DNA of 64,000 nucleotides. Origin: Polyangiales bacterium (GTDB lineage Bacteria; Myxococcota_A; Polyangia; Polyangiales; Ga0077539). Where the stretch lies: positions 178,892 through 242,891 of the forward strand of contig JAXLYJ010000005.1 in assembly GCA_046351515.1 (NCBI GenBank), given 5' to 3'. The notes below the pieces were generated by a model that saw nothing but the letters and a program-made list of their open reading frames with translations, had not been told where the DNA came from and made no database searches. A program made the translations under genes and the position numbers. Below are positions 2,338 to 64,000 of the stretch, in pieces (the first letter of the stretch is position 1; the number at the start of each line of letters is the position of its first letter).

Positions 2338-3978
2338 TCAGACCGAGATCGCGCCCTTTCTGAACTCGCTCGACGCGATCTTCACGTTGACGACCGCGGG
2401 GCGCTTCTCGGCCTCGGCCGCGCGAAACGCCGCTTCGAACGCGGGCCTCAAGTCCGAGGCCTTCTCGACCCACGCGCCGAAGCAGCCGAGCGCCTCGGCG
2501 ACCTTCTCGTAGCGCGTGTATTCGAGGGCCGTCGCGACGGCGCGGTCTTCGCCGTACATCTCGACCTGCCCGCGTCGGATCTGCGTCCATCCCGCGTCGT
2601 TGCCGATGACGCACACGACGGGAATCTTCTGGCGATACATCGCTTCGAGCTCCATCGCGTGGAGCCCGAACGAGCCGTCGCCGAACACGAGCACCACGCG
2701 CGAGTCGGGCCTGGCGAGCTTGGCGGCCATGGCGTAGCCGGGGCCGACGCCCAGCGTCCCGAGCGGTCCGGGGTCCATCCAGAAGCCCTTGGGCTTGACG
2801 TTGAGCACGTACGCCGCGGTCGCGACGAAGTCACCGCCGTCGCCGACGACGATGCTGTCCTCCTGCAAGAACTTGTCGAGCTCGGCGCACACGCGCAGCG
2901 GGTTGGGCGGATCGGAGTCGAGCTCCATCTCAGCGCGCATCTTCGCCTTGCGCTTGTCCTCGTCGCGACGAATCGCCGCGATCCAATCGCCCGCTTCGCG
3001 CTTGGGCAGCGCCGTCGTGAGCGCGCTCAGCATCAAGCCCGTGTCCGAGACGATGCCGACGTCGACGCCCTTGTTGTGGCCGATCTGCGCGGCGTCGCGG
3101 TCGACCTTGATGATCTTGGTGCCCGGGCTCCACGTGGGGGCGCGGCCGTAGTCGACGCGAAAATCAAAGGGCGTCCCGCACATGAGCACGACGTCCGCTT
3201 GCTCGAGCGCGGCGCGGCGCGAGCGCGTGAAGAGGCACGGGTGGTCGGGCGGGAGCGAGGCGCGGGCCATTCCGTTGCAGAAGGTCGGCATCGGAAAGTG
3301 CGCGAGGAGCGAGGCGAGCGAGTCGCGATCGGAGCTCCAGCGGAGCTGCGAGCCGATGATCGCGACGGGGCGCTCTGCTTCGGCGAGGAGATTCACAGCC
3401 TTCGAGAGGTAGTACGGGTCTGGCGCCGGCTGCGCTGCGGTGCGCGCCGTCGCAGGGTCGGGCCACTCTTCGACCGCGGCGAAGTTCATGAGAACGTCGA
3501 GCGGAAGCTCGAGGTACGTCGGGCCGGGGACGCCCGTGGTCGCGACGCGAAACGCCATACTCACGTACTCAGCGAGCCGGTCGGTGTGGATCACGCGCCA
3601 GCAGCCCTTCGTGATCGGCTTGATCAAATCCAGGTGATTCATGTCCTGCAGCGACCCGCGATCCGCGAGCAGTGCGGGCCCTGCGCCGCCGATGCACACC
3701 ATCGGAACGCCCGCGCGCTGCGCGTTCGCGAGCGCCGTCACCACGTCGGTCACGCCCGGCCCCGCCGTCACCGCGACCACGCCCGGGACGCCCGTCACCC
3801 GCGCCCACCCGTCCGCGCAGTGCCCCGCCGTCTGCTCGTGGCGCACGTCCACCACGCGGATCCCCGTGTCCAAACAGCCGTCGTAGATGGACTGGATGTG
3901 CCCGCCGCAGAGCGTGAACAAGTGCGTCACGCCTTCGCGCTTCAGTTGCTCCGCGACGATTCGACCGCCGTGCATCAT
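2338..3978 (-). CDS. Thiamine-pyrophosphate-dependent enzyme (acetolactate synthase / oxalyl-CoA decarboxylase superfamily)
   Basis: N-terminal TPP-enzyme Pyr domain ([19 protein letters not shown]...[19 protein letters not shown]), a central domain, and a C-terminal TPP-binding GDG...N motif region ([36 protein letters not shown]). Confidence 0.8.
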
Positions 3979-4065
3979 GGTGCGTCTTCTCTCCTGTCGT
4001 CGCGGATCGTGGGCGCGAACGACGCGCGCGAGCGTACCTCAACGGGATACAGTCACGTCCCTCTC

Positions 4066-4818
4066 ATGTGGCACCGGCATCGATCTGCTCCTGCGTCGGC
4101 GTGGTTCGCCGCTTCGCTCGGGCTCATCGCCGGGCTCGCGGTCTTCGTCACGCTCGACGCGACGGTCGTTCGGCCGGCGCTCGAACAGAGCGCGTTTACC
4201 GCAGGGATTCCGCGGGCAAAGCTCTCGAGTCCGTCCCGCGAGCGCGCGGTGTACCGCGTCGTCCTGCGCCCCCGCGAGCGCTCACAGAGCCCCTCGGGCG
4301 CCGAGGTCGTCGCGCATCGTTGGACCCTTCGCAGGCCCGCTTTGCGTGCGAGCGACGGCGCGCCTCCGCCCATCGTCGGCGAGGACACCACGTGCGTCGC
4401 CGAGGCCGATGGAGCGCGGGTCGAAGTCGCCCTCCCGCTGCGCAACAACGAGTGGGGCGAGGGCCGCGTGCGCGAGGTTCCTTCGAGGCTGCGCGCGGTG
4501 TTGCCCGAAGCGAGCGAGCCGGGCGCGGTGTACACCGAGTGGCGCGTGCTCGACGGGCAGCGCGCGGACGTCGTCGGGTGCGTGCGCGACGCGGGCGACC
4601 AAGATCCCTCGCGCGCCGATCGCCCAGCGCCGCGCGTGCTCGGAGACTGCGGCGACGGCGCTCCGTCGCGCGTGTTCTTGCTGCCCTCGCGCGCGGTCGC
4701 GCGGGCTCGATCGATGATCGCGCTCGAGCGCGTCTCCGCTGCGTCCGGCGCCTTCGCCATCGCCTGCGTGCTCGCGGGCTTCGGCGCGCTTCGCTCGTGG
4801 AAGAGCCGCGCGCCATGA
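4066..4818 (+). CDS. Bitopic membrane protein of unknown function (N-terminal and C-terminal TM helices)
   Basis: ATG at 4066. An N-terminal hydrophobic helix (AWFAASLGLIAGLAVFVTL), a roughly 190-aa soluble region, then a C-terminal helix (GAFAIACVLAGFGAL). Its stop overlaps the next start (ATGA). Confidence 0.5.
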   Translation: MWHRHRSAPASAWFAASLGLIAGLAVFVTLDATVVRPALEQSAFTAGIPRAKLSSPSRERAVYRVVLRPRERSQSPSGAEVVAHRWTLRRPALRASDGAPPPIVGEDTTCVAEADGARVEVALPLRNNEWGEGRVREVPSRLRAVLPEASEPGAVYTEWRVLDGQRADVVGCVRDAGDQDPSRADRPAPRVLGDCGDGAPSRVFLLPSRAVARARSMIALERVSAASGAFAIACVLAGFGALRSWKSRAP

Positions 4819-42747: not shown

Positions 42748-44301
42748 TCACGGATCGATCACCGTCGCGGGAGTTCCGAGCTCGGCGCGCACGGACTGTT
42801 CGACCACCCGCAGCAGCGCGAGGCACAGCTCGTCCTTCCATGCGCGCGTGGCGATCTGCACTCCAACCGGGAGCCCGAGGCTCTGGCGGTCCACCTCGCG
42901 CGCTCTGCGAACGACGGTGTCCATCGTCGCCTCGCGGTCGCACTCGTCTTCGCGCACGGTGGTGACGGGCACGACCCCAGCGGGCCAGTGCAAGAGGTTG
43001 AAGAGCATCGTGTACGACGCCGCTTGCGCGAACTGCGCGCCCATCGTGTGCGGGACCGCGGCGGTGGCGAACGGCGGGAGCACCAGCCCGTCGAGCTTCG
43101 CGTCGTCGAGCGCGGCCTCGATCGCGAAGCGCCGCGAGCGCACGGCGGCGATGAGCTTCCAGTAGTCCTGCACCGAGCGCTCTCCGAACGAGCGCAGGAT
43201 CATCGCGGTCAAGCCTTGTCCCGTGAGCTCGAGCGCGCGCGCTGCGGTCGATCGAACGCGGGCCGGGAGCTTGGCGGCGATGAGCATCGACTCGAGCGTG
43301 ACGTCCACCGGACCGTCGCCGACCTGCTCGCGCGCCGTGAGCGCTCCGTCCGCAGAGAGGCACGAAAAATACTCGCGAATCGCATCCGCGTTGCCCGGAA
43401 CGACGAACGGCACCACCTCGACGCCCGCGCGCTCGAGCGCTTGCGCTGCGCGGCGCACGGCGCGGATGTTGGCCTTCGACGGCGCGAGGATCCCGTCGTG
43501 CTCGACGATGCCGATCCGCACTTTGTCGAGGGACTGCACAGCTCGCCAGGGCATCGGCGGCGTGCGTCCGTCCTTTTGCGAGAGCGCTTGCGAATCGAGC
43601 GAGCGCATCGCGAGGTCGATGTCGTCGACCGTGCGGGCCATCGGGCCGCACTGCGAGCGGATCGCTTCTTGTCCGGGCAGGCCCGCGACCAGGCCCTTGT
43701 TGGGCCAGCGGTCCTGCGTGGGCTTGAACCCGACGCACCCAGAAAAATGCGCGGGCAGGCGGATCGATCCGCCGATGTCCGTTCCGATCCCGAGGAGCGA
43801 GCCGCCGTAGACGAGCGCCGCGGCCTCGCCGCCCGACGATCCGCCAGGCGAGTGCGTGAGCTTTCGCGGGTTCGAGCACTGCCCGTACACCGGGTTTCTG
43901 CACTCGAACGAGAGGAGCAGCTGCGGGACGTTCGTTCGCGCGATCACGATCGCGCCCTGCTTGCGCGCCTCGGCGACGACGGGCGCGTCGGCGTTGGCGC
44001 GGATCGACGTTCGCCTGGGCAAACCCAGGGTCGAGACGCATCCCTCCATCTCGATCGACTCTTTGACGGTGATCGGCAGCCCGTGCAGCGCGCCGAGGGG
44101 CTCTCCCTTCGCCCGCGCTTCGTCCGCGCGCCGCGCTTCTTGCCGCGCGCGCTGGTCCAATCGCTCGACCACGGCGTTGACCGCCCCGTCGTGCTTCTCG
44201 ATTCGTCCCAACAGGGCGTCGACAAGCTCGATCGAGCTGATCTTTTTCGCGTCCAGTAGGGCCTTGGCCTCGCTCGCGCTGAGCTCGTGCAACTCGGTCA
44301 T
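42748..44301 (-). CDS. Amidase (amidase-signature family, GatA-like)
   Basis: Start at MTELHELS (44301). AS signature GGSSGGEAAALV and the catalytic Ser-cisSer-Lys region (ITVKE...GGS). Confidence 0.8.
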   Translation of the reverse strand: MTELHELSASEAKALLDAKKISSIELVDALLGRIEKHDGAVNAVVERLDQRARQEARRADEARAKGEPLGALHGLPITVKESIEMEGCVSTLGLPRRTSIRANADAPVVAEARKQGAIVIARTNVPQLLLSFECRNPVYGQCSNPRKLTHSPGGSSGGEAAALVYGGSLLGIGTDIGGSIRLPAHFSGCVGFKPTQDRWPNKGLVAGLPGQEAIRSQCGPMARTVDDIDLAMRSLDSQALSQKDGRTPPMPWRAVQSLDKVRIGIVEHDGILAPSKANIRAVRRAAQALERAGVEVVPFVVPGNADAIREYFSCLSADGALTAREQVGDGPVDVTLESMLIAAKLPARVRSTAARALELTGQGLTAMILRSFGERSVQDYWKLIAAVRSRRFAIEAALDDAKLDGLVLPPFATAAVPHTMGAQFAQAASYTMLFNLLHWPAGVVPVTTVREDECDREATMDTVVRRAREVDRQSLGLPVGVQIATRAWKDELCLALLRVVEQSVRAELGTPATVIDP

Positions 44302-57423: not shown

Positions 57424-58620
57424 TCAGCCCGGGATGATCGTCGGGCAGCCGTAAATGATCTGCACCGAGGCGCCGGCAGCGCCAGCGCGCACTTCGTCGC
57501 AGAGCATTCCGTAGAACACGATCGAGCGTCCGCCCGGCGCGTAGTCCCAGCCGTTGGTGTGCGACGTGTCTCGCGGAATGTACCGCCCCGCGCCGCCCGA
57601 CATCGGCGTGTAGTACACGTTGATGAGGTTGGGGTCGGCGGTCATCGGGTCCACTTGCAGGATGAACTCGCAGGTGGCGGCGCGATCGCGCACCGAGTCG
57701 AGCGCCAGGTTCAGGTCGCGCTCGAACGTCGCGGTCCCGAGCGTGTAGTGGCAGTCGTTGGGCCCGCAGCCCGCAGAGCGCGCGGTCTGTCCGTTGACGG
57801 CGACCGAGGACATGAACGAGGGGACAGCGTCCGGCGTTCCGAGGGCGAAGGTGCGGACGATGGGCATGTTGCGCGCGCCCCGAACGACGGACGCGAGGAT
57901 CACGCCCTGCGCTGCGGACGAGGCAGCCATGATGCAGTTGATGAAGTTGGGATCGAAGGGATTGCACGCGGCCATGCCCGAGCACTCGTCGGTCGGCGCT
58001 CCGTCGGTGATGAGCATGATGTTGCGCGATCCCATGTCCATCAGCCCGCGCATGTAGTCGACCGCTTGCGGCATCGCGCACGCCATGGGCGTGTTGCCGT
58101 TGGGCCTCGCCGCTTGAATCGCCGCGAGCAACGAAGCGCGCGTCTCGCTGAGCGGACGATCGACGCCGATCACGGGCGTGCGATATCCGTCGGCCGTCCC
58201 GGCGTTGGACGAGGCAGGGAAGAACATCAGCCCCACGCGCGCCTGATCTTCGAGCGACATGAGCAGCCGCTGCAGACCTTGCTGCGTCACGCTCCACTTG
58301 CTCTCGCAGCCCGAGCGGCTCGATCCGTCGGCGCACTCGCTCATCGAGCCCGAGCGGTCGACGACCATGAGCAGGTTCATCGGGACGCGCGTCGTCGGAG
58401 TGTTCTGCGTCGCGCAGCCCGCGTCGGGTCCGATCATCGAGGGATCGCGATCGGGCCGTGAGCCTGCGTCGGTATTGCTCACGGAGCCGTCGTTATTTCC
58501 GCCGCCGCCGCCGTCGACGTTGGCGTTGCCTCCGTCCGCGGGGATCAATCGCGGAGGATCACTGCACGCGACGGCAGCGAGAGACGCGACGAGCACAAGA
58601 GAGCGAAGCGCAACGTTCAT
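57424..58620 (-). CDS. von Willebrand factor type A domain lipoprotein
   Basis: Signal plus lipobox LAAVACS. A Gly/Asn/Asp-rich linker. VWA MIDAS motif LLMVVDRSGSM, then ...NIMLITDGAPT. Confidence 0.7.
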   Translation of the reverse strand: MNVALRSLVLVASLAAVACSDPPRLIPADGGNANVDGGGGGNNDGSVSNTDAGSRPDRDPSMIGPDAGCATQNTPTTRVPMNLLMVVDRSGSMSECADGSSRSGCESKWSVTQQGLQRLLMSLEDQARVGLMFFPASSNAGTADGYRTPVIGVDRPLSETRASLLAAIQAARPNGNTPMACAMPQAVDYMRGLMDMGSRNIMLITDGAPTDECSGMAACNPFDPNFINCIMAASSAAQGVILASVVRGARNMPIVRTFALGTPDAVPSFMSSVAVNGQTARSAGCGPNDCHYTLGTATFERDLNLALDSVRDRAATCEFILQVDPMTADPNLINVYYTPMSGGAGRYIPRDTSHTNGWDYAPGGRSIVFYGMLCDEVRAGAAGASVQIIYGCPTIIPG

Positions 58621-58715: not shown

Positions 58716-59255
58716 ATGAGACCCCTACGCTTCGCGCTGCTGCCGCTGTTCGCGCTCGCTTCGGGCTGCGCTCCGATCGGCTTCGACATTCCGAAGACGC
58801 TCGATGAACAACGAGTGACGGGAGACCCCGTCGCCAACGCCGCCGGTCAGGCTTTGCCCGCGGGGACGCTCGCGCCGATCACGTTCTCTGTGGACCTGAC
58901 CGCAGAGAGCAACAGTCGTCGCGTTCCCATCGGGCGAGTGCTGCTCAAATCGATGTCGTTCAGCATCACACCGACCGCTGAACCCGCAGGAGACACCGAC
59001 GACTTCTCGTTTATCCGAACGATGAACGTCTACTTCGAGTGCACCGGCGCCGGCTGCACGTTGCCGCGCGTCCTGGTCGCGAGCGTGACCAACCCGAGCA
59101 CCATCCGCACGCTGCCGTTCACCATCACGCCGAACGTGAACGTGAAGCCGTACATCGACGCGGGCGTTCGCGTGGTGATCGAAGCGGACGCGATCCCGCC
59201 GCCCGACGACACGACCTTCAACGGCGTGGTCGTCCTGCGCGTCGAGCCGATCTGA
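58716..59255 (+). CDS. Lipoprotein of unknown function
   Basis: MRPLRFALLPLFALASGC lipoprotein signal. A 179-aa product, divergent from the VWA lipoprotein. Confidence 0.55.
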   Translation: MRPLRFALLPLFALASGCAPIGFDIPKTLDEQRVTGDPVANAAGQALPAGTLAPITFSVDLTAESNSRRVPIGRVLLKSMSFSITPTAEPAGDTDDFSFIRTMNVYFECTGAGCTLPRVLVASVTNPSTIRTLPFTITPNVNVKPYIDAGVRVVIEADAIPPPDDTTFNGVVVLRVEPI

Positions 59256-60981
59256 CCGTCGCGCCCGCGACGAACACCGCCAGCGCCCAGCGCCACCCGC
59301 TCGTCCGCGCGCTGTCTGCGCCGACGCTCACGCGGCACCCGCAACCTCCCATCACCGGCGGAACGTCCCCTCCGCCCGCGCCCGCCTCGCGCCTCGCGCT
59401 CGCGTCGCGCGTCGCGATCGCGCCATCGTCCACGGCGGCGTCTTGAATTGTGGTGCCGCCATCGCCGCCGGCGCTCAACCGCAGCACGATCGTCTCGTCC
59501 GTGGGGCCGCCGTTGGCCATATCCGAGAACCACCCGCCCACGTCGTCGACGAGGTTGAGGTTCTCCGTGAAATCGCCGCCCGAAAGCGGGGCGTGCACGT
59601 CGAACGCGAACGTGTAGCTCTCGCCTCGCGCGACGGTGCGCGAGACCGACGCGACGCGCGCGGGGCTCGTCCACGTGAGGTCTGCGATGGGGCTCTCGTG
59701 CTCGCGCGCGTTGGCCGTCGCGAGAAACGTGCGGCCCGCGGTCCACGACTGCGTTCCGGTGTTGCGCAGCTCGAGCTCACACGCGCGCGTCGCGCCAGGG
59801 GCGATCGCCGCCGCGGTCGAGCAGGTGTTGCGAAGCACCTGCGCGGCGAACGGAGCGCCGCCGACGCGCACGCGAATCTGCAGTTGGTTGTCCGGCGGTC
59901 CGCCCTGGCCCGGGTCGCTGAACCAGCCGATCCCCGTGTGAATCAGCCCGAAGTACTGCGAGTAATCGCCGGGCGTCATCGGCGCGCGGAGGGTGAACGC
60001 GAAGCGCGCCGAAGCTCCCATCGCGGTGCTCGCGCTCACCGTCGCGGGTCGGTTGTTCGCGATCCACGTCGGGTGCGCCAGCGGGCTCGCTCCGTCGCGG
60101 GGCTGCGTCGTCGCGAGCATCGTCGTGCCTGCGATCCATGTCTGTGTCCCCGTGTTGCGCAGCTCGATGAATCCCGCGAGCTCTTGGCCCGGCGTCATTT
60201 CGATCGCGGTCGCCGCGGTGGCGAAGCTCTGCGAGACGAACTGCGCGCGCAGCTGCGGGTCGGTCGTCATGGGCATGCCGCACACTCGACCGATGCGAAA
60301 TCCCTCGGCGGGAGAGCGCTCGAGCCGCGCTTGCGTCATCGGTCCCCAAGCGCCGTCCTCGGCGATGCGGTCTGCGGGGTTGTTCGCGTTCCACAAGCGT
60401 TGAAACGCGCGGACGGACATCGCGCGAAAGTCTGCTCCTGGGCCGTCGAAGTGCACCGGATCGTTGCTCGGGTACGATTGCGCAAACCCGTTTGCCACGA
60501 GCGCCGCCCGCGCCGTCGCGTAGTTGTCGACGTCCACCGCGCGCCCCGTCTCGTGATTCGAGCTTCCCGGAACGGCCACCAGCCCGCACCCCGCCGCCGT
60601 GTACAAGAGCCACTGCTCGACCAGCGTGCGAAAGCCCGAGTTGATCCTCAGCGGCGTCGTCGCTGCCGCGCGAACGAGCCCGTCCCGCGCGGCCGGCGAG
60701 AGCACGGGGTGTACGCGCGGATTGGTCAGCGTAATCCCAGGGGATCCTGCGTAGGACACGAGCCCGCCGCCCGCGAGGCACAGCAGCTCATCGAGCAGCT
60801 GCGCGCTCAACCCTTCGGCGCCCGCCGTCGAGCACCCAGGCTGTCCTCGCAGCGTCCCCACCGCGACCTCGCTCACCGCTTGTCCGCTTCCGTCGTCCAC
60901 GTTCGGCGCGCACGAGAGCAGCGCAGCGGTCGCGACGACCCACGAAGAACCCGCTCGAACGACGCCGACCGCTCGCTTCAT
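59218..60981 (-). CDS. Peptidase M15 (VanY/D-Ala-D-Ala carboxypeptidase-like) + two beta-sandwich repeats + MYXO-CTERM sorting tail
   Basis: Signal peptide. M15 motifs RINSGFRT...SSNHETGRAVDVD. Two roughly 100-aa repeats (ELRNTGTQ[TS]W.AG.T.LAT...). C-terminal GGCGCRVSVG...WRWALAVFVAGATVRSARRAGRPRR. Confidence 0.7.
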   Translation of the reverse strand: MKRAVGVVRAGSSWVVATAALLSCAPNVDDGSGQAVSEVAVGTLRGQPGCSTAGAEGLSAQLLDELLCLAGGGLVSYAGSPGITLTNPRVHPVLSPAARDGLVRAAATTPLRINSGFRTLVEQWLLYTAAGCGLVAVPGSSNHETGRAVDVDNYATARAALVANGFAQSYPSNDPVHFDGPGADFRAMSVRAFQRLWNANNPADRIAEDGAWGPMTQARLERSPAEGFRIGRVCGMPMTTDPQLRAQFVSQSFATAATAIEMTPGQELAGFIELRNTGTQTWIAGTTMLATTQPRDGASPLAHPTWIANNRPATVSASTAMGASARFAFTLRAPMTPGDYSQYFGLIHTGIGWFSDPGQGGPPDNQLQIRVRVGGAPFAAQVLRNTCSTAAAIAPGATRACELELRNTGTQSWTAGRTFLATANAREHESPIADLTWTSPARVASVSRTVARGESYTFAFDVHAPLSGGDFTENLNLVDDVGGWFSDMANGGPTDETIVLRLSAGGDGGTTIQDAAVDDGAIATRDASARREAGAGGGDVPPVMGGCGCRVSVGADSARTSGWRWALAVFVAGATVRSARRAGRPRR

Positions 60982-61023
60982 TCGCGAGCGACGATACCGT
61001 TTTGCGCTGCAAATTCACAGCGA

Positions 61024-62094
61024 CTACAGCAGCCGTTCGCGATCGCCCGCCCGCTCGAGCAGCACCGTCGCGAGCGCCACCATCACCAGTCGAATCGGGT
61101 CCATCGGACCCGCGAGGCGCAACACCCCGAAGCCAGCGAACAGCACCAAGAGCCAGCCCAGCGAGCGCCGCGCGCCCGCTCCGTTGTCGAAGCCGATCGA
61201 CGCCGTCGAGAGCGCCGCCGTCCCGAGCAAGAGCGTCGGCGCGATCGAATATCCCAGCAGCGCGAGGCGACCGACGACGGACTCAGCGTCGTTGCTCACC
61301 AGGTCGAAGCGCGCTCCAAACGTCGTGCGCGCGAGCACCGCGGAGGCCGCCGCGGGCACCATCACGATCATCGCCACGATGATCGCCAGCAGCGCCGCTG
61401 GAAACGGCAGAAACAACTTCGTCCGCTCGGCGCCCACCGCTCGCGTCCCCGCGCGATACGCCCACAGCGTGGCGGCGACCGAGCCGAGCAGCGTGCACAG
61501 CTCCGCGCCGCGACCGAGCCACGCCATCGTCACCGCGCCGCTTCCCGCAGGAGGCAACATCGCTTGCGCGGGCGCGTACGACAGCTCGATCAGCTCGCCG
61601 ATGAGCAGAAGCGCGAACGCGATTCGCGCCGATGCGAACGCGCCCGGACGCGCCGCGCCGAGCACCAACGAGAACGCCGCGGTCGTGCCTGCGCCGATCA
61701 ACCCTGCCCACTGGATGCTCGAGCGAGGCTCGCCGAAGAGCGCAGCGAACACGAGCAGCGCCACCGGCAGCGCGACGAGCGCGCGCACGGCGTGGATGAT
61801 CCGCGTCGAGCCCGAGGAGGAGCGCGCGGCGCGCACGAGCGTTCCGACGAGGGCAAGCGCCGCGAGGACCGCGCCGAACACGCCTGCGAAGGTGGCGGTC
61901 TGCAGCATCCACGGTCGCGTCGCGGTGATGTTGGCCAACGGCCGCGCGAGGATGAACCAGACGAACAGCGCCGCGAGCGCGGTACCAGCAGGAAACGTAG
62001 ACCCCTCGTCTTGCTCAGCCGGCTCGCTCGTGGCGTCCGCCGGCGATCGGTACACAGCGTCGTCGGTCACAGTTGCAGCTACCGTAGCACGCAA
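61024..62094 (-). CDS. Polytopic integral membrane protein of unknown function
   Basis: About 9 hydrophobic helices are predicted by eye. No catalytic motifs were recognised. Confidence 0.5.
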   Translation of the reverse strand: MRATVAATVTDDAVYRSPADATSEPAEQDEGSTFPAGTALAALFVWFILARPLANITATRPWMLQTATFAGVFGAVLAALALVGTLVRAARSSSGSTRIIHAVRALVALPVALLVFAALFGEPRSSIQWAGLIGAGTTAAFSLVLGAARPGAFASARIAFALLLIGELIELSYAPAQAMLPPAGSGAVTMAWLGRGAELCTLLGSVAATLWAYRAGTRAVGAERTKLFLPFPAALLAIIVAMIVMVPAAASAVLARTTFGARFDLVSNDAESVVGRLALLGYSIAPTLLLGTAALSTASIGFDNGAGARRSLGWLLVLFAGFGVLRLAGPMDPIRLVMVALATVLLERAGDRERLL

Positions 62095-62127
62095 CGGCGA
62101 TCACCATCGCCCTCACGAGCCCGAGGG

Positions 62128-63615
62128 CTATCCGCTCGTTCGCTCGCGGGCGCGCCGCAGGTACGTCCGGGCCACTTGCTCGGGATCGACCCGCAACTGC
62201 CTCGCGAGCTCGAGCACAAAGCCCCGCAAATACACCGCGGGAGGAAGGCTCTCGTACGCTTCTTCTTCGATCGCGTTCAGGCTCGAGAGAGGGATCTTGG
62301 TGCGCGCAGAGAGCTCGCGCAGCTCGACGCCTCGCGCCTCGCGCACCGCGCGAAGCAGCGCTCCGCTGAACTCGGTGTCCGGCGCGATCTCGGGCATCGG
62401 CGGCAGCTCGATGGGCTCGGGCGAGGGCGAAGGCTCGGGCGTCGTCCCGCCGAACACGCGATCCGGCAGCGTGATGCTCAGGTCGTACGGCCTTCGTCGC
62501 ACTGGGTCGAGCAGGACGTCGCGCGCCTCCTCGACGCGCGAGAGCGCAGACTCGCGGAGCTCTTCTGAGCACAGTCCCGCCGCGGCGAGCGACTCGGTCG
62601 CGTACAAATCCCGCATCCTTCGCACGGCGCGGCGGACTTCTTCATCGGTCGCGCCGCGGTCGAGCAAGAGCGTCTCGTAGTGCGACGGCGCCGCGGGCTC
62701 GACCGGCGCTCGCTCGACGCGCTGATCGGGCGACGGCTCGACGGCCGAGTGCGCGGCCGCGAGCCTGCGCGCGAGCCGCTCGATGTTGCGCGAGGCCTTC
62801 GCGCCGGGCGAGTCGACGAGCAACGGACGACGCTTGCGCGCCGCGAGGCTGACGGCTTCGTCGTACTCGATGTGCCCGAGAAAATTCAGCTCGATCCCCA
62901 GTCGTTGCCGGGACAGGACGCTCATCGACTCGCCGAGCTCGAGGTCCACGCGCGAGCGCGAGGCGTTGACGATGAACCACGGTCGCAGGTCGTGCAGCGC
63001 GGCCCACACGCTCGTGGCGACCGCGGGCTCTGCGGCGGCGATCGCCCGCGCCAGGTCGATCGGAGCAGGCGGCGCTCCCTCGCGCTCGATCGTCGAGCGA
63101 AGGACGTCGAGCGCAGGCGGAGACGTCTTGAGCGCGTGCGACAGCGATCGCGCGTACGCGTGGCGAATCCAGCGGTAGATCGCTTCGACCGACGACGGCT
63201 CGGGAAGCGCCACGAGCAGCGCAGCGTCGACGTCGAGCATCGCGTCGATGAGCGCTGAGCTCGTCCCGGGCCCGAGGTCCAGCACGACGTGATCGGCGCC
63301 CGATTGCGCGGCGATCTCGCGCGGGCGCTTGAGGGTGACGCCTGGCACCGTTCCGGTCTCGCTGAACGCGCTGAGCAAGCGCACGTTGGGGACGACGGTC
63401 TCTCTTCCGCGAGCGTCTTGCGCGGCCATCGCCCACGGCTGTTGGTGCATCGGCGGCGCGGCGCAGCCGAAGCTCGTGCCGAGCTGTGGGGCGTTGGGAT
63501 GACCGTCGACGACGAGGACGCGCTTTCCGAGCTGCGCGAGATAGACGGCGATTCCTGCGGCGGCGAGCGAGCGACCAGCGCCGCCTTTGCCACCTCCGAC
63601 TGCGATGACGGTCAT
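62128..63615 (-). CDS. ParA/MinD-family P-loop ATPase fused to a RodZ-type helix-turn-helix domain
   Basis: Deviant Walker A MTVIAVGGGKGGAGRS at the N-terminus (start 63615). ParA fold through about residue 300. Degenerate J-like helix YETLLLDRGATDEEVRRAVRRM. C-terminal HTH LRELSARTKIPLSSLNAIEEEAYESLPPAVYLRGF. Confidence 0.7.
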   Translation of the reverse strand: MTVIAVGGGKGGAGRSLAAAGIAVYLAQLGKRVLVVDGHPNAPQLGTSFGCAAPPMHQQPWAMAAQDARGRETVVPNVRLLSAFSETGTVPGVTLKRPREIAAQSGADHVVLDLGPGTSSALIDAMLDVDAALLVALPEPSSVEAIYRWIRHAYARSLSHALKTSPPALDVLRSTIEREGAPPAPIDLARAIAAAEPAVATSVWAALHDLRPWFIVNASRSRVDLELGESMSVLSRQRLGIELNFLGHIEYDEAVSLAARKRRPLLVDSPGAKASRNIERLARRLAAAHSAVEPSPDQRVERAPVEPAAPSHYETLLLDRGATDEEVRRAVRRMRDLYATESLAAAGLCSEELRESALSRVEEARDVLLDPVRRRPYDLSITLPDRVFGGTTPEPSPSPEPIELPPMPEIAPDTEFSGALLRAVREARGVELRELSARTKIPLSSLNAIEEEAYESLPPAVYLRGFVLELARQLRVDPEQVARTYLRRARERTSG

Positions 63616-63653
63616 GCGTTGCGGCGGGAGGTATACCGCATCGCGCCGCGCGT

Positions 63654-64000
63654 TCAGTCCTCGTCGTGATCGAGCGCGAGCGCCTCGTGCGCGTAGCTCG
63701 CGTGCTCCCAGAGCTGCGCGAGCTCTTTTGCGCCCGGGAGCGTCGCGAGAAACGGCTCCCACTCGCGCGGCCGCGACGGAGTAAACGCCAGCGCGAGCAC
63801 CGGCGACCAGCGAGGGCGCGAGGGCTTGCGGAGCAGCTTCATCCCCGATTCGGCGGGCGTTCGTCCGCCCTTCTCGAGGTTGCACACGCGGCACGAGCAC
63901 ACGATGTTCTCCCAGCTCGTGGGGCCGCCGCGTGATCGCGGCATGACGTGATCGAGGTTCAAGTCCCTCGCGCTCGAACGCTTGCCGCAGTACTGACAGG
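63654..64000 (-). CDS. HNH endonuclease (partial; N-terminus lies beyond the window end)
   Basis: The frame continues to the window edge as CQYCGKRSSARDLNLDHVMPRSRGGPTSWENIVCSCRVCNLEKG, the HNH beta-beta-alpha-metal motif with Cys pairs. Confidence 0.65.
   Translation of the reverse strand, partial: CQYCGKRSSARDLNLDHVMPRSRGGPTSWENIVCSCRVCNLEKGGRTPAESGMKLLRKPSRPRWSPVLALAFTPSRPREWEPFLATLPGAKELAQLWEHASYAHEALALDHDED

Follow-up and report, generated by a model that had tools for sequence, protein, structure and literature searches.

At the right-hand end of a 64,000-nucleotide stretch of a Polyangiales genome (contig JAXLYJ010000005.1, positions 178,892 to 242,891; hereafter the window), a reverse-strand gene encodes a 495-residue protein that joins three domains in a single chain: a MinD/FlhG-like P-loop ATPase domain, a J-like domain without the HPD motif, and a C-terminal RodZ-type helix-turn-helix (HTH). 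It lies between a gene for an HNH endonuclease, which runs off the window edge, and a gene for a polytopic membrane protein (Table 1). The three-part architecture had been proposed in a sequence-only reading of this DNA, and it is borne out by Pfam matches, by an AlphaFold2 (AF2) model and by purifying selection. The protein begins with MTVIAVGGGKGGAGRS, and the three segments quoted in that reading can all be found in it: the Walker A motif at amino acids (aa) 7-16, YETLLLDRGATDEEVRRAVRRM at aa 313-334, and LRELSARTKIPL...VYLRGF at aa 432-466. Our choice of start codon is supported by the pattern M-[TSA]-[VIL]-[IV]-AVGG, which is found at the N-terminus of the five closest homologues. The same locus is present on a 5.5-kb public Logan assembly contig (L001, run SRR26348422), whose positions 2709-4581 are identical to 62128-64000 of the window at all but 5 of 1873 bases, which points to a near-identical strain in the sequenced sample.

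Given an input of 29 diverse homologues, AF2 models the fusion protein with a mean predicted local distance difference test score (pLDDT) of 86.6 and a predicted template modelling score of 0.71, and lays it out as an α/β ATPase domain over aa 1-292, a J-like domain made up of helices at 312-380 and an HTH of five helices at 418-494, with disorder in the linker (381-417) between the last two. The ratio of nonsynonymous to synonymous substitution rates (dN/dS) is 0.18-0.26 for the whole gene. By region it is 0.10-0.18 in the J-like domain, 0.12-0.17 in the HTH and 0.15-0.25 in the ATPase domain, but 0.46-0.97 in the linkers: purifying selection acts on each of the domains. The C-terminal region, which the sequence-only reading had allowed might be of low complexity, is a folded HTH in the AF2 model and shares in that selection. 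The fusion protein contains no transmembrane segment, its hydropathy maximum lying within the ATPase core.

Table 1. The fusion gene, its domains and motifs, and the adjoining genes; positions are those of the window and residue numbers those of the 495-aa protein.
Feature	Position	Strand	Evidence or remark
Fusion gene (MinD/FlhG-like + J-like + RodZ-type HTH, 495 aa)	62128..63615	-	Open reading frame list, Pfam, identical protein on contig L001
MinD/FlhG-like P-loop domain, aa 1-292, with helical insertion	62740..63615	-	PDB profile search, Foldseek, AF2
Degenerate deviant Walker A GGGKGGAGRS, aa 7-16; signature Lys10 kept, P-loop Lys replaced by Arg15	63568..63597	-	Sequence
Switch I DGHP, aa 37-40; Asp37 kept, His39 at the catalytic Asp position	63496..63507	-	Family alignment
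J-like domain, aa 312-380; apparent four-helix J fold without HPD (Y338-A-T-E-S-L in its place)	62476..62682	-	Pfam, PDB profile, AF2
Pro-rich disordered linker, aa 381-417	62365..62475	-	AF2 pLDDT <50 for aa 381-400; dN/dS 0.55-0.97
RodZ-type HTH (HTH_25), aa 418-494	62134..62364	-	Pfam, PDB matches
Polytopic membrane protein gene, ~348-356 aa	61024..62094	-	~9 hydrophobic segments; 33-57 bp downstream of the fusion gene
HNH endonuclease gene, 3' part (114 codons of 217 aa)	63654..64000	-	Translation; Pfam HNH_5 56.7 bits

The N-terminal domain is matched by the Pfam CbiA/ParA model (aa 4-264, E 3.5e-9) and also by AAA_31. Its top match in a profile search of the PDB is FleN (5j1j, E 6.6e-27), aligned in two blocks that leave profile positions 163-237 over, while Foldseek ranks FlhG first (4rz2, E 2.4e-10, TM 0.70 on the target) and assigns a probability of 1.00 to FlhG, FleN, MinD, Soj and NifH alike, so that the overall fold is of the SIMIBI type. 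Taken together, these searches rank FleN/FlhG first, then MinD, then Soj. A helical insertion of ~50 residues (aa ~160-212, with AF2 helices at 166-179, 185-195 and 197-209) is absent from FleN and MinD; it is also found in the stand-alone ATPases described below and is a family-specific feature. No NCBIfam model reaches its cut-off on the fused protein, nor on any of ten relatives that are stand-alone or long. Of the curated MinD models, minD_bact scores 37.1 on the fused protein against a cut-off of 212.9 and minD_arch 40 against 201.75, and the list of NCBIfam matches contains no FlhG- or FleN-specific model. The amphipathic membrane-targeting helix found at the C-terminus of FlhG, FleN and MinD is absent as well: after aa 292 the chain continues through a linker into the J-like domain, and it ends in the HTH. 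Neither in the window nor among relatives does the fusion gene have flhF, fleQ, minC or minE as a neighbour. Because the curated cut-offs are missed, the targeting helix is absent and flagellar or min neighbours are lacking, we do not file the protein as FlhG, MinD or ParA proper, and the automatic name "FlhG" is not supported. An assignment as a "KGGVGR-motif variant AAA ATPase" was also rejected, the domain model scoring 36.7 against a cut-off of 90. The sequence-only reading had considered that the ATPase might fall into a well-characterised family such as FlhG or MinD; this holds for the nearest fold, FlhG/FleN, but not at any curated threshold. Of the Pfam matches that it named, those to CbiA, AAA_31 and HTH_25 were obtained, while DUF4115 has no Pfam match in the fusion protein.

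The same reading had described a deviant Walker A motif on a full ParA fold. The fold stands, but the Walker A is not a standard one, as KGGAGRS lacks the P-loop lysine and has Arg15 instead. In Switch I (VVVDGHP), His39 occupies the position equivalent to D40 of MinD and D44 of Soj. The P-loop glycines, D37 and the Walker B residue D113 are invariant in the family, and it is the Walker A lysine and the catalytic aspartate that are often gone from these HPD-less fused proteins (K15R and D39H in ours). Among 121 homologues, position 15 is K in 60, R in 28, T in 11, H in 7 and S in 4; column 39 is D in 69, H in 43 and A in 5 across the family, and its state correlates with loss of the P-loop lysine. 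Both lysines and the catalytic aspartate are retained together in 22 of 119 proteins. When the motifs are written as signature Lys/P-loop Lys/catalytic Asp, the 76 scored genomes comprise 19 with the canonical K/K/D, 25 with K/T/D, 8 with R/K/D, 7 with K/R/H and 17 with other combinations, drawn from S, N, H, A or V in place of the P-loop lysine and H, A, Q or E in place of the aspartate. These states are clade-specific, and in the clade to which the window belongs all 20 scored members are without both the P-loop lysine and the catalytic aspartate. In P-loop proteins generally, replacement of the lysine by arginine together with loss of the water-activating aspartate usually preserves nucleotide binding and abolishes hydrolysis. 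Judged by its motifs, therefore, the protein of the window's lineage most likely binds nucleotide and hydrolyses it very slowly or not at all, as would befit a non-cycling scaffold.

For the middle of the protein, the sequence-only reading had recognised helices I-II of a J domain lacking HPD. The motif is indeed missing; the domain appears to comprise the complete four-helix fold and not just helices I-II. The Pfam DnaJ model (PF00226) matches aa 312-378 over model positions 2-63 of 63, with a score of 21.3 bits that lies below the 27.8 cut-off; the family profile matches J domains of DnaJ proteins in the PDB at ~1e-9; and AF2 places J-like helices at 324-337, 351-369 and 371-379 with pLDDT >90. 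HPD is present in 0 of 121 aligned homologues, 0 of 76 genome copies and 0 of 6 split partners, and at the site where it would stand the family has conserved another loop, [DE]S[LV]A..[GS]L. The J-like domain is nevertheless the best conserved region of the fusion protein, with R320, D324, R328, R329, A330, E363, D366, L368-D370, R373, R374 and Y377 invariant. In common with DnaJ it has, besides the apparent fold, the basic face of helix II (RRAxRR) and the helix III-IV motif (EA.DVLLDP.RRR.YD); unlike DnaJ, the protein is without a Gly/Phe region, a zinc finger and domains for client binding. Without HPD a J domain does not stimulate the ATPase of Hsp70, and as the motif is absent from every fused or split member examined we take this to be a J-like interaction domain rather than a co-chaperone; going by J-domain biochemistry, it is presumably unable to act as an Hsp70 activator. 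J-like domains serve as interaction modules in the division systems of ARC6 and ZipN (PMC12232670, PMC6391411), to which the resemblance is one of functional analogy only.

The RodZ-like HTH that had been proposed for the C-terminal domain is confirmed. Pfam HTH_25 matches aa 420-481 with E 4.7e-18 and 65.2 bits against a cut-off of 24.6, and HTH_19, HTH_31 and HTH_3 match as well, in keeping with an XRE-type five-helix HTH. The PDB matches are RodZ N-domains: 4gqm (CT009, a chlamydial RodZ homologue), 3fym, and 2wus_R, the Thermotoga maritima RodZ from the MreB co-crystal. In NCBIfam, the only matches to models other than those for ATPases and DnaJ are to the rodZ models, below cut-off. The hallmarks of HTH_25 are present (TKI...L.AIEE...LP..VY.RGF), and a gap-free alignment to T. 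maritima RodZ places its Y53 and Y57 opposite Y462 and F466, both of which are invariant in our family. In RodZ, Y53 and Y57 reportedly contact MreB, with K36 as a third contact. The fusion protein is not itself a RodZ, because it has neither a transmembrane segment nor the periplasmic DUF4115 domain and so cannot span the membrane; its HTH, moreover, is C-terminal, whereas that of RodZ is N-terminal.

A search of 5.8 billion proteins with the fusion protein gave 685 matches at E ≤ 1e-5. The best 120 of these are nearly all 480-600 aa long and have the same three domains, and the homologues are named only "helix-turn-helix domain-containing protein" or, automatically, "FlhG". In a scan with one genome per species, relatives occur in at least 468 species genomes, in which the fusion can be regarded as a core gene. 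The best 80 of these genomes are all Myxococcota of the Polyangia type (Polyangiales, Sandaracinaceae, Labilithrix luteola and a metagenome-assembled genome (MAG) of Nannocystis), and cultured carriers of the fusion include Sandaracinus amylolyticus and Labilithrix luteola. Longer fusions also exist, P0366 (679 aa) and P0334 (640 aa), in which the Walker A is canonical (GKGGVGKS) and a linker of 150-200 low-complexity residues separates the J-like domain from the HTH; given these variants, the fusion may have arisen more than once. The sequence-only reading had regarded the union of a positioning ATPase with such an HTH as uncommon, a view that is not sustained by the spread of these relatives or by the two-gene form of the module, which is very common in other phyla.

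That two-gene form was found by searching with the J-like/HTH half only, for short proteins encoded on long contigs. In 2 of 3 such loci a ParA-like gene lies directly upstream, its stop codon overlapping the start of the next gene by 1 nucleotide (TGATG, locus L082) or 4 nucleotides (ATGA, L086). The split ATPases are 30-32% identical to the fused N-terminal domain over its full length, insertion included, and the split J-like/HTH proteins are 35-42% identical to their fused counterpart. A profile search of 1.8 billion cluster representatives returned 1853 relatives at E ≤ 1e-30, many of them stand-alone ATPases of 310-350 aa that carry the insertion, and a search with an alignment of these stand-alone ATPases returned at least 7984 at E ≤ 1e-20 among the 8000 matches listed. 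They are labelled only "P-loop NTPase" and come from Bdellovibrionota, Nitrospiraceae and "Deltaproteobacteria" MAGs. When loci are entered from the stand-alone ATPase (L087-L090 and L142-L144; for example L088, 5001-8588), the next gene encodes a protein of 205-296 aa with the J-like domain and HTH_25 in all seven cases, and downstream of the pair there is a RluB-type pseudouridine synthase gene in six and a Cu-oxidase_4 (PgeF/YlmD) gene in five. One Nitrospiraceae locus has scpA and scpB directly upstream of the pair. Several loci (L086, L089, L142) have a divergent histidine kinase gene upstream, with or without a sigma-54 response regulator; in L089 and L142 this is a HisKA kinase plus the regulator. 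A further locus, L084 (6001-6945), encodes a 314-aa protein with an N-terminal J-like domain (again without HPD), a long linker and a C-terminal HTH_25; it adjoins no ParA-like gene, stands beside a HisKA kinase and a RluB-type gene, and may represent a third architecture of the module.

The fusion thus derives from a conserved two-gene module, and the fact that the ATPase and the J-like/HTH protein are fused in Polyangia is Rosetta-stone evidence that the two act together. Neither protein names nor literature searches brought up a characterised member of the module; a paper on Bdellovibrio ParA1, ParA2 and ParA3 deals with orphan ParAs and contains nothing that ties them to it.

The genomic neighbourhood within Polyangia is partly clade-dependent. 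Downstream of the fused gene, the largest clade has maf, a gene of the yggS (ylmE) type and, in many cases, proC; clusters of yggS, proC and divIVA have been linked to division (PMC7186360). Genes for a RecD2-like helicase and for the HNH nuclease are often found upstream, and a HisKA kinase is encoded near the fusion gene in about a dozen Polyangia loci. The membrane protein gene of the window is found directly downstream of the fusion gene in 21 genomes, all of them in the clade with degenerate ATPase motifs, and in no other clade. Its product, which has no Pfam or NCBIfam match, may be a lineage-specific partner of the degenerate ATPase, as its place in the gene order suggests.

We propose, with middling confidence, that the protein is a MinD-type dimerising scaffold, linked through its RodZ-like HTH to MreB or another conserved partner, with little or no ATP turnover in the window's lineage. 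On this proposal the gene would be the single-chain version of a conserved two-protein module, of which one component is a MinD/FlhG-class P-loop protein with the helical insertion and no membrane-targeting helix, and the other a dedicated partner made up of the HPD-less J-like domain, a flexible linker and the RodZ-type HTH. The P-loop domain would dimerise as MinD and ParA do, the J-like domain would form the interface towards the ATPase domain, and the HTH would attach the complex to a conserved cellular partner. We rank MreB as the most likely such partner because the aromatic pair that reportedly makes the MreB contacts of RodZ is invariant here; it is the most economical guess that the alignment allows for the ligand of the HTH, with DNA binding as the main rival. 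The genes that accompany the split module (scpAB, rluB, pgeF/ylmD) and the fused one (maf, yggS/ylmE, proC) suggest that it may help to coordinate the growth of the cell envelope, division or the chromosome cycle. In the window's lineage, the protein would act as a static scaffold rather than as a cycling switch.

Several points weigh against this proposal. K36, the third of the reported MreB contacts in RodZ, aligns with the variable S445, and the aromatic pair is a hallmark of the entire HTH_25 family, so it could be structural; MreB binding is, moreover, read from residue conservation in an alignment. What the J-like domain does towards the ATPase is something we infer, purely so. In some lineages the P-loop lysine has been replaced by Thr, Ser, Val, Asn or Ala, which may abolish nucleotide binding there, and the idea of binding without hydrolysing might then fail for the family as a whole. 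Lastly, the gene downstream of the fusion varies by Polyangia clade (membrane protein, Maf or PMT_2 glycosyltransferase), and the genomic context is only suggestive.

The chief competitor, which we find doubtful, has DNA as the ligand of the HTH. This would make the module a ParA/ParB-like nucleoid system or a nucleoid-associated regulator, the J-like/HTH protein being the ParB-like partner and the fused form a ParA with its own DNA anchor for chromosome organisation. The XRE-type five-helix fold of the HTH, with its matches to HTH_19, HTH_31 and HTH_3, speaks for it, as do the position of the partner gene, which is that of parB, the scpA and scpB genes in the Nitrospiraceae locus, and the frequency of the RecD2-like helicase and HNH genes upstream in Polyangia. 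Set against these are the nearest solved relatives of the HTH, which are RodZ N-domains, for which the documented ligand is said to be MreB and not DNA. Furthermore, the positions at which XRE proteins read bases (aa 442-445) are variable in our family, in contrast to the invariant LP..VY.RGF face of helix 4; the ATPase has its nearer relatives in FlhG/MinD rather than in Soj/ParA; and the module contains no ParB-type domain. An acidic stretch in helix 3 (AIEEE) was tried as an additional argument against DNA binding and dropped, as XRE-type DNA binders also have a conserved Glu there. An improbable third reading would make the protein a FleN-like regulator of a sigma-54 enhancer-binding protein, in which the MinD-like domain, on the model of FleN and FleQ, binds and damps an AAA+ activator, while the HTH provides targeting to promoters. 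FleN and FlhG are indeed the best matches in sequence and structure, and histidine kinase genes, some with a sigma-54 regulator, stand divergently at L086, L089 and L142, beside the lone J-like/HTH gene of L084 and near the dozen or so Polyangia loci mentioned above. Such genes are, however, so abundant in these genomes that adjacency is weak evidence; a kinase or enhancer-binding protein gene is missing from the vicinity in the window and at most other loci, none of the curated models for FlhG or MinD scores above its threshold, and Myxococcota are not known to have flagella.

That the protein is a genuine Hsp70 co-chaperone, its J-like domain recruiting DnaK to a site set by the ATPase domain and the HTH, would agree with the apparently complete J fold and with the basic RRAxRR face of helix II, but the uniform lack of HPD in fused, genomic and split copies, and its replacement by another conserved loop, make this very improbable. 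The remaining possibility concerns the HNH gene, which the sequence-only reading placed 39 bp from the fusion gene (we measure 38 bp), with its start beyond 64000, and suspected of belonging to a mobile or defence element continuing past the window; as weighed here, that element would take in the fusion gene too. The gene does run off the edge, and L001 supplies the continuation: the complete 217-aa gene (L001 2402-3055), with selA and an open reading frame of 96 codons ahead of it in the same orientation. Its product scores 54.9-56.7 bits with HNH_5 (cut-off 27.5) and has both CxxC pairs and the catalytic His (C104xxC, D118-H119, C139xxC). There is something to be said for a mobile origin: full-length relatives, 30-41% identical, occur on 51 viral contigs (IMG/VR, L091-L141), phrog_16726 matches at 5e-33, the architecture of an N-terminal domain of ~100 aa plus HNH_5 is shared with phages, and PADLOC reports weak matches to PtuB and restriction-enzyme HNH motifs. 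These PADLOC matches are to the motif only, over ~50 residues, and the fusion protein for its part has no relatives on viral contigs. The 2.4 kb recovered beyond the HNH gene contain no integrase, transposase or defence genes; 12 of 80 related genomes, from two deeply separated clades, have an HNH gene 48-88% identical to this one immediately ahead of the fusion gene, and in others the HNH gene adjoins selA. Pairwise identities of the HNH and fusion proteins from 14 genomes are correlated (Spearman 0.79), and the GC content at third codon positions is 0.85 in the HNH gene and 0.82-0.86 in its neighbours. Being syntenic, co-diverging and matched in composition, this copy appears to be a vertically inherited chromosomal gene, an ordinary conserved neighbour of the housekeeping kind that the sequence-only reading had itself named as the contrary outcome, and the mobile or defence element can be given hardly any credence.

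The preferred scaffold can be compared with three better known groups of ATPases. With FlhG and FleN it shares the SIMIBI fold, the glycine-rich backbone of the deviant Walker A and the Walker B aspartate. It differs from them in having the ~50-residue insertion, the J-like domain and the HTH but no membrane-targeting helix, in the replacement of the P-loop lysine and the catalytic aspartate, and in having no flagellar genes nearby. The split module resembles ParA-ParB and MinD-MinE in that an ATPase gene is followed by a gene for a small HTH partner, often with overlapping stop and start codons; the partner, however, is not MinE and has no ParB/Srx CTPase domain, offering instead a J-like domain and a RodZ-type HTH, no parS-like repeat or cargo was identified for the module, and in Polyangia the two parts are covalently fused with the ATPase motifs decaying. 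PomZ/AgmE, the ParA-like division-site ATPase of Myxococcus, is like our protein an orphan ATPase of the ParA/MinD class in Myxococcota. PomZ is described as a ParA of one domain only, whose motifs are canonical and whose partners PomX and PomY are separate proteins, in contrast to the fusion protein, which is nearer to FlhG/MinD than to Soj/ParA and carries the J-like domain and the HTH.

Elsewhere in the window, a reverse-strand gene at 59218-60981 encodes a predicted secreted protein of 587 aa with a VanY-like D-Ala-D-Ala carboxypeptidase motif and two NBR1-type Ig-like domains (N_BRCA1_IG, E 4e-13), and it is adjoined by a gene for a VWA-domain lipoprotein (57424-58620). A spurious open reading frame of 1865 codons contains an ordinary amidase-family gene (42748-44270, reverse strand), whose product starts with MTELHELSASEAKALL. 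Rfam and tRNA scans of the window gave no matches, and a scan of 60700-64000 for promoters and terminators found no promoter-like site and, between the genes, no terminator-like site.

ParA/MinD ATPases organise chromosomes, division sites, flagella, carboxysomes and chemoreceptor arrays, and each newly understood pair of ATPase and adaptor has revealed a new cargo or a new principle. The adaptor described here joins a domain of the type that activates Hsp70 to an HTH of the type with which RodZ binds MreB, a use for which we found no earlier description. Such pairs are frequent in Bdellovibrionota, Nitrospirota and Myxococcota, where they stand beside genes for chromosome condensation and the cell envelope. 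A more far-reaching reading, which we consider unlikely as it stands, is that the pair constitutes an unrecognised cytoskeleton-associated positioning system of several phyla, in which the J-like domain has been repurposed as a regulator or adaptor of the ATPase and the HTH couples to MreB from the cytoplasm without a membrane span. The fusion in Polyangia would then have made a nucleotide-driven cycle of association dispensable, which would account for the Walker A lysine and the catalytic aspartate having been lost repeatedly and independently from a fold that remains under selection. The Polyangia fusion can further be seen as a natural experiment, with an ATPase switch decaying into a pseudo-enzyme scaffold. 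Should the HTH bind MreB, the module would provide a soluble, RodZ-independent route for regulating the actin-like cytoskeleton, which would be relevant in these bacteria to rod growth and to gliding motility.

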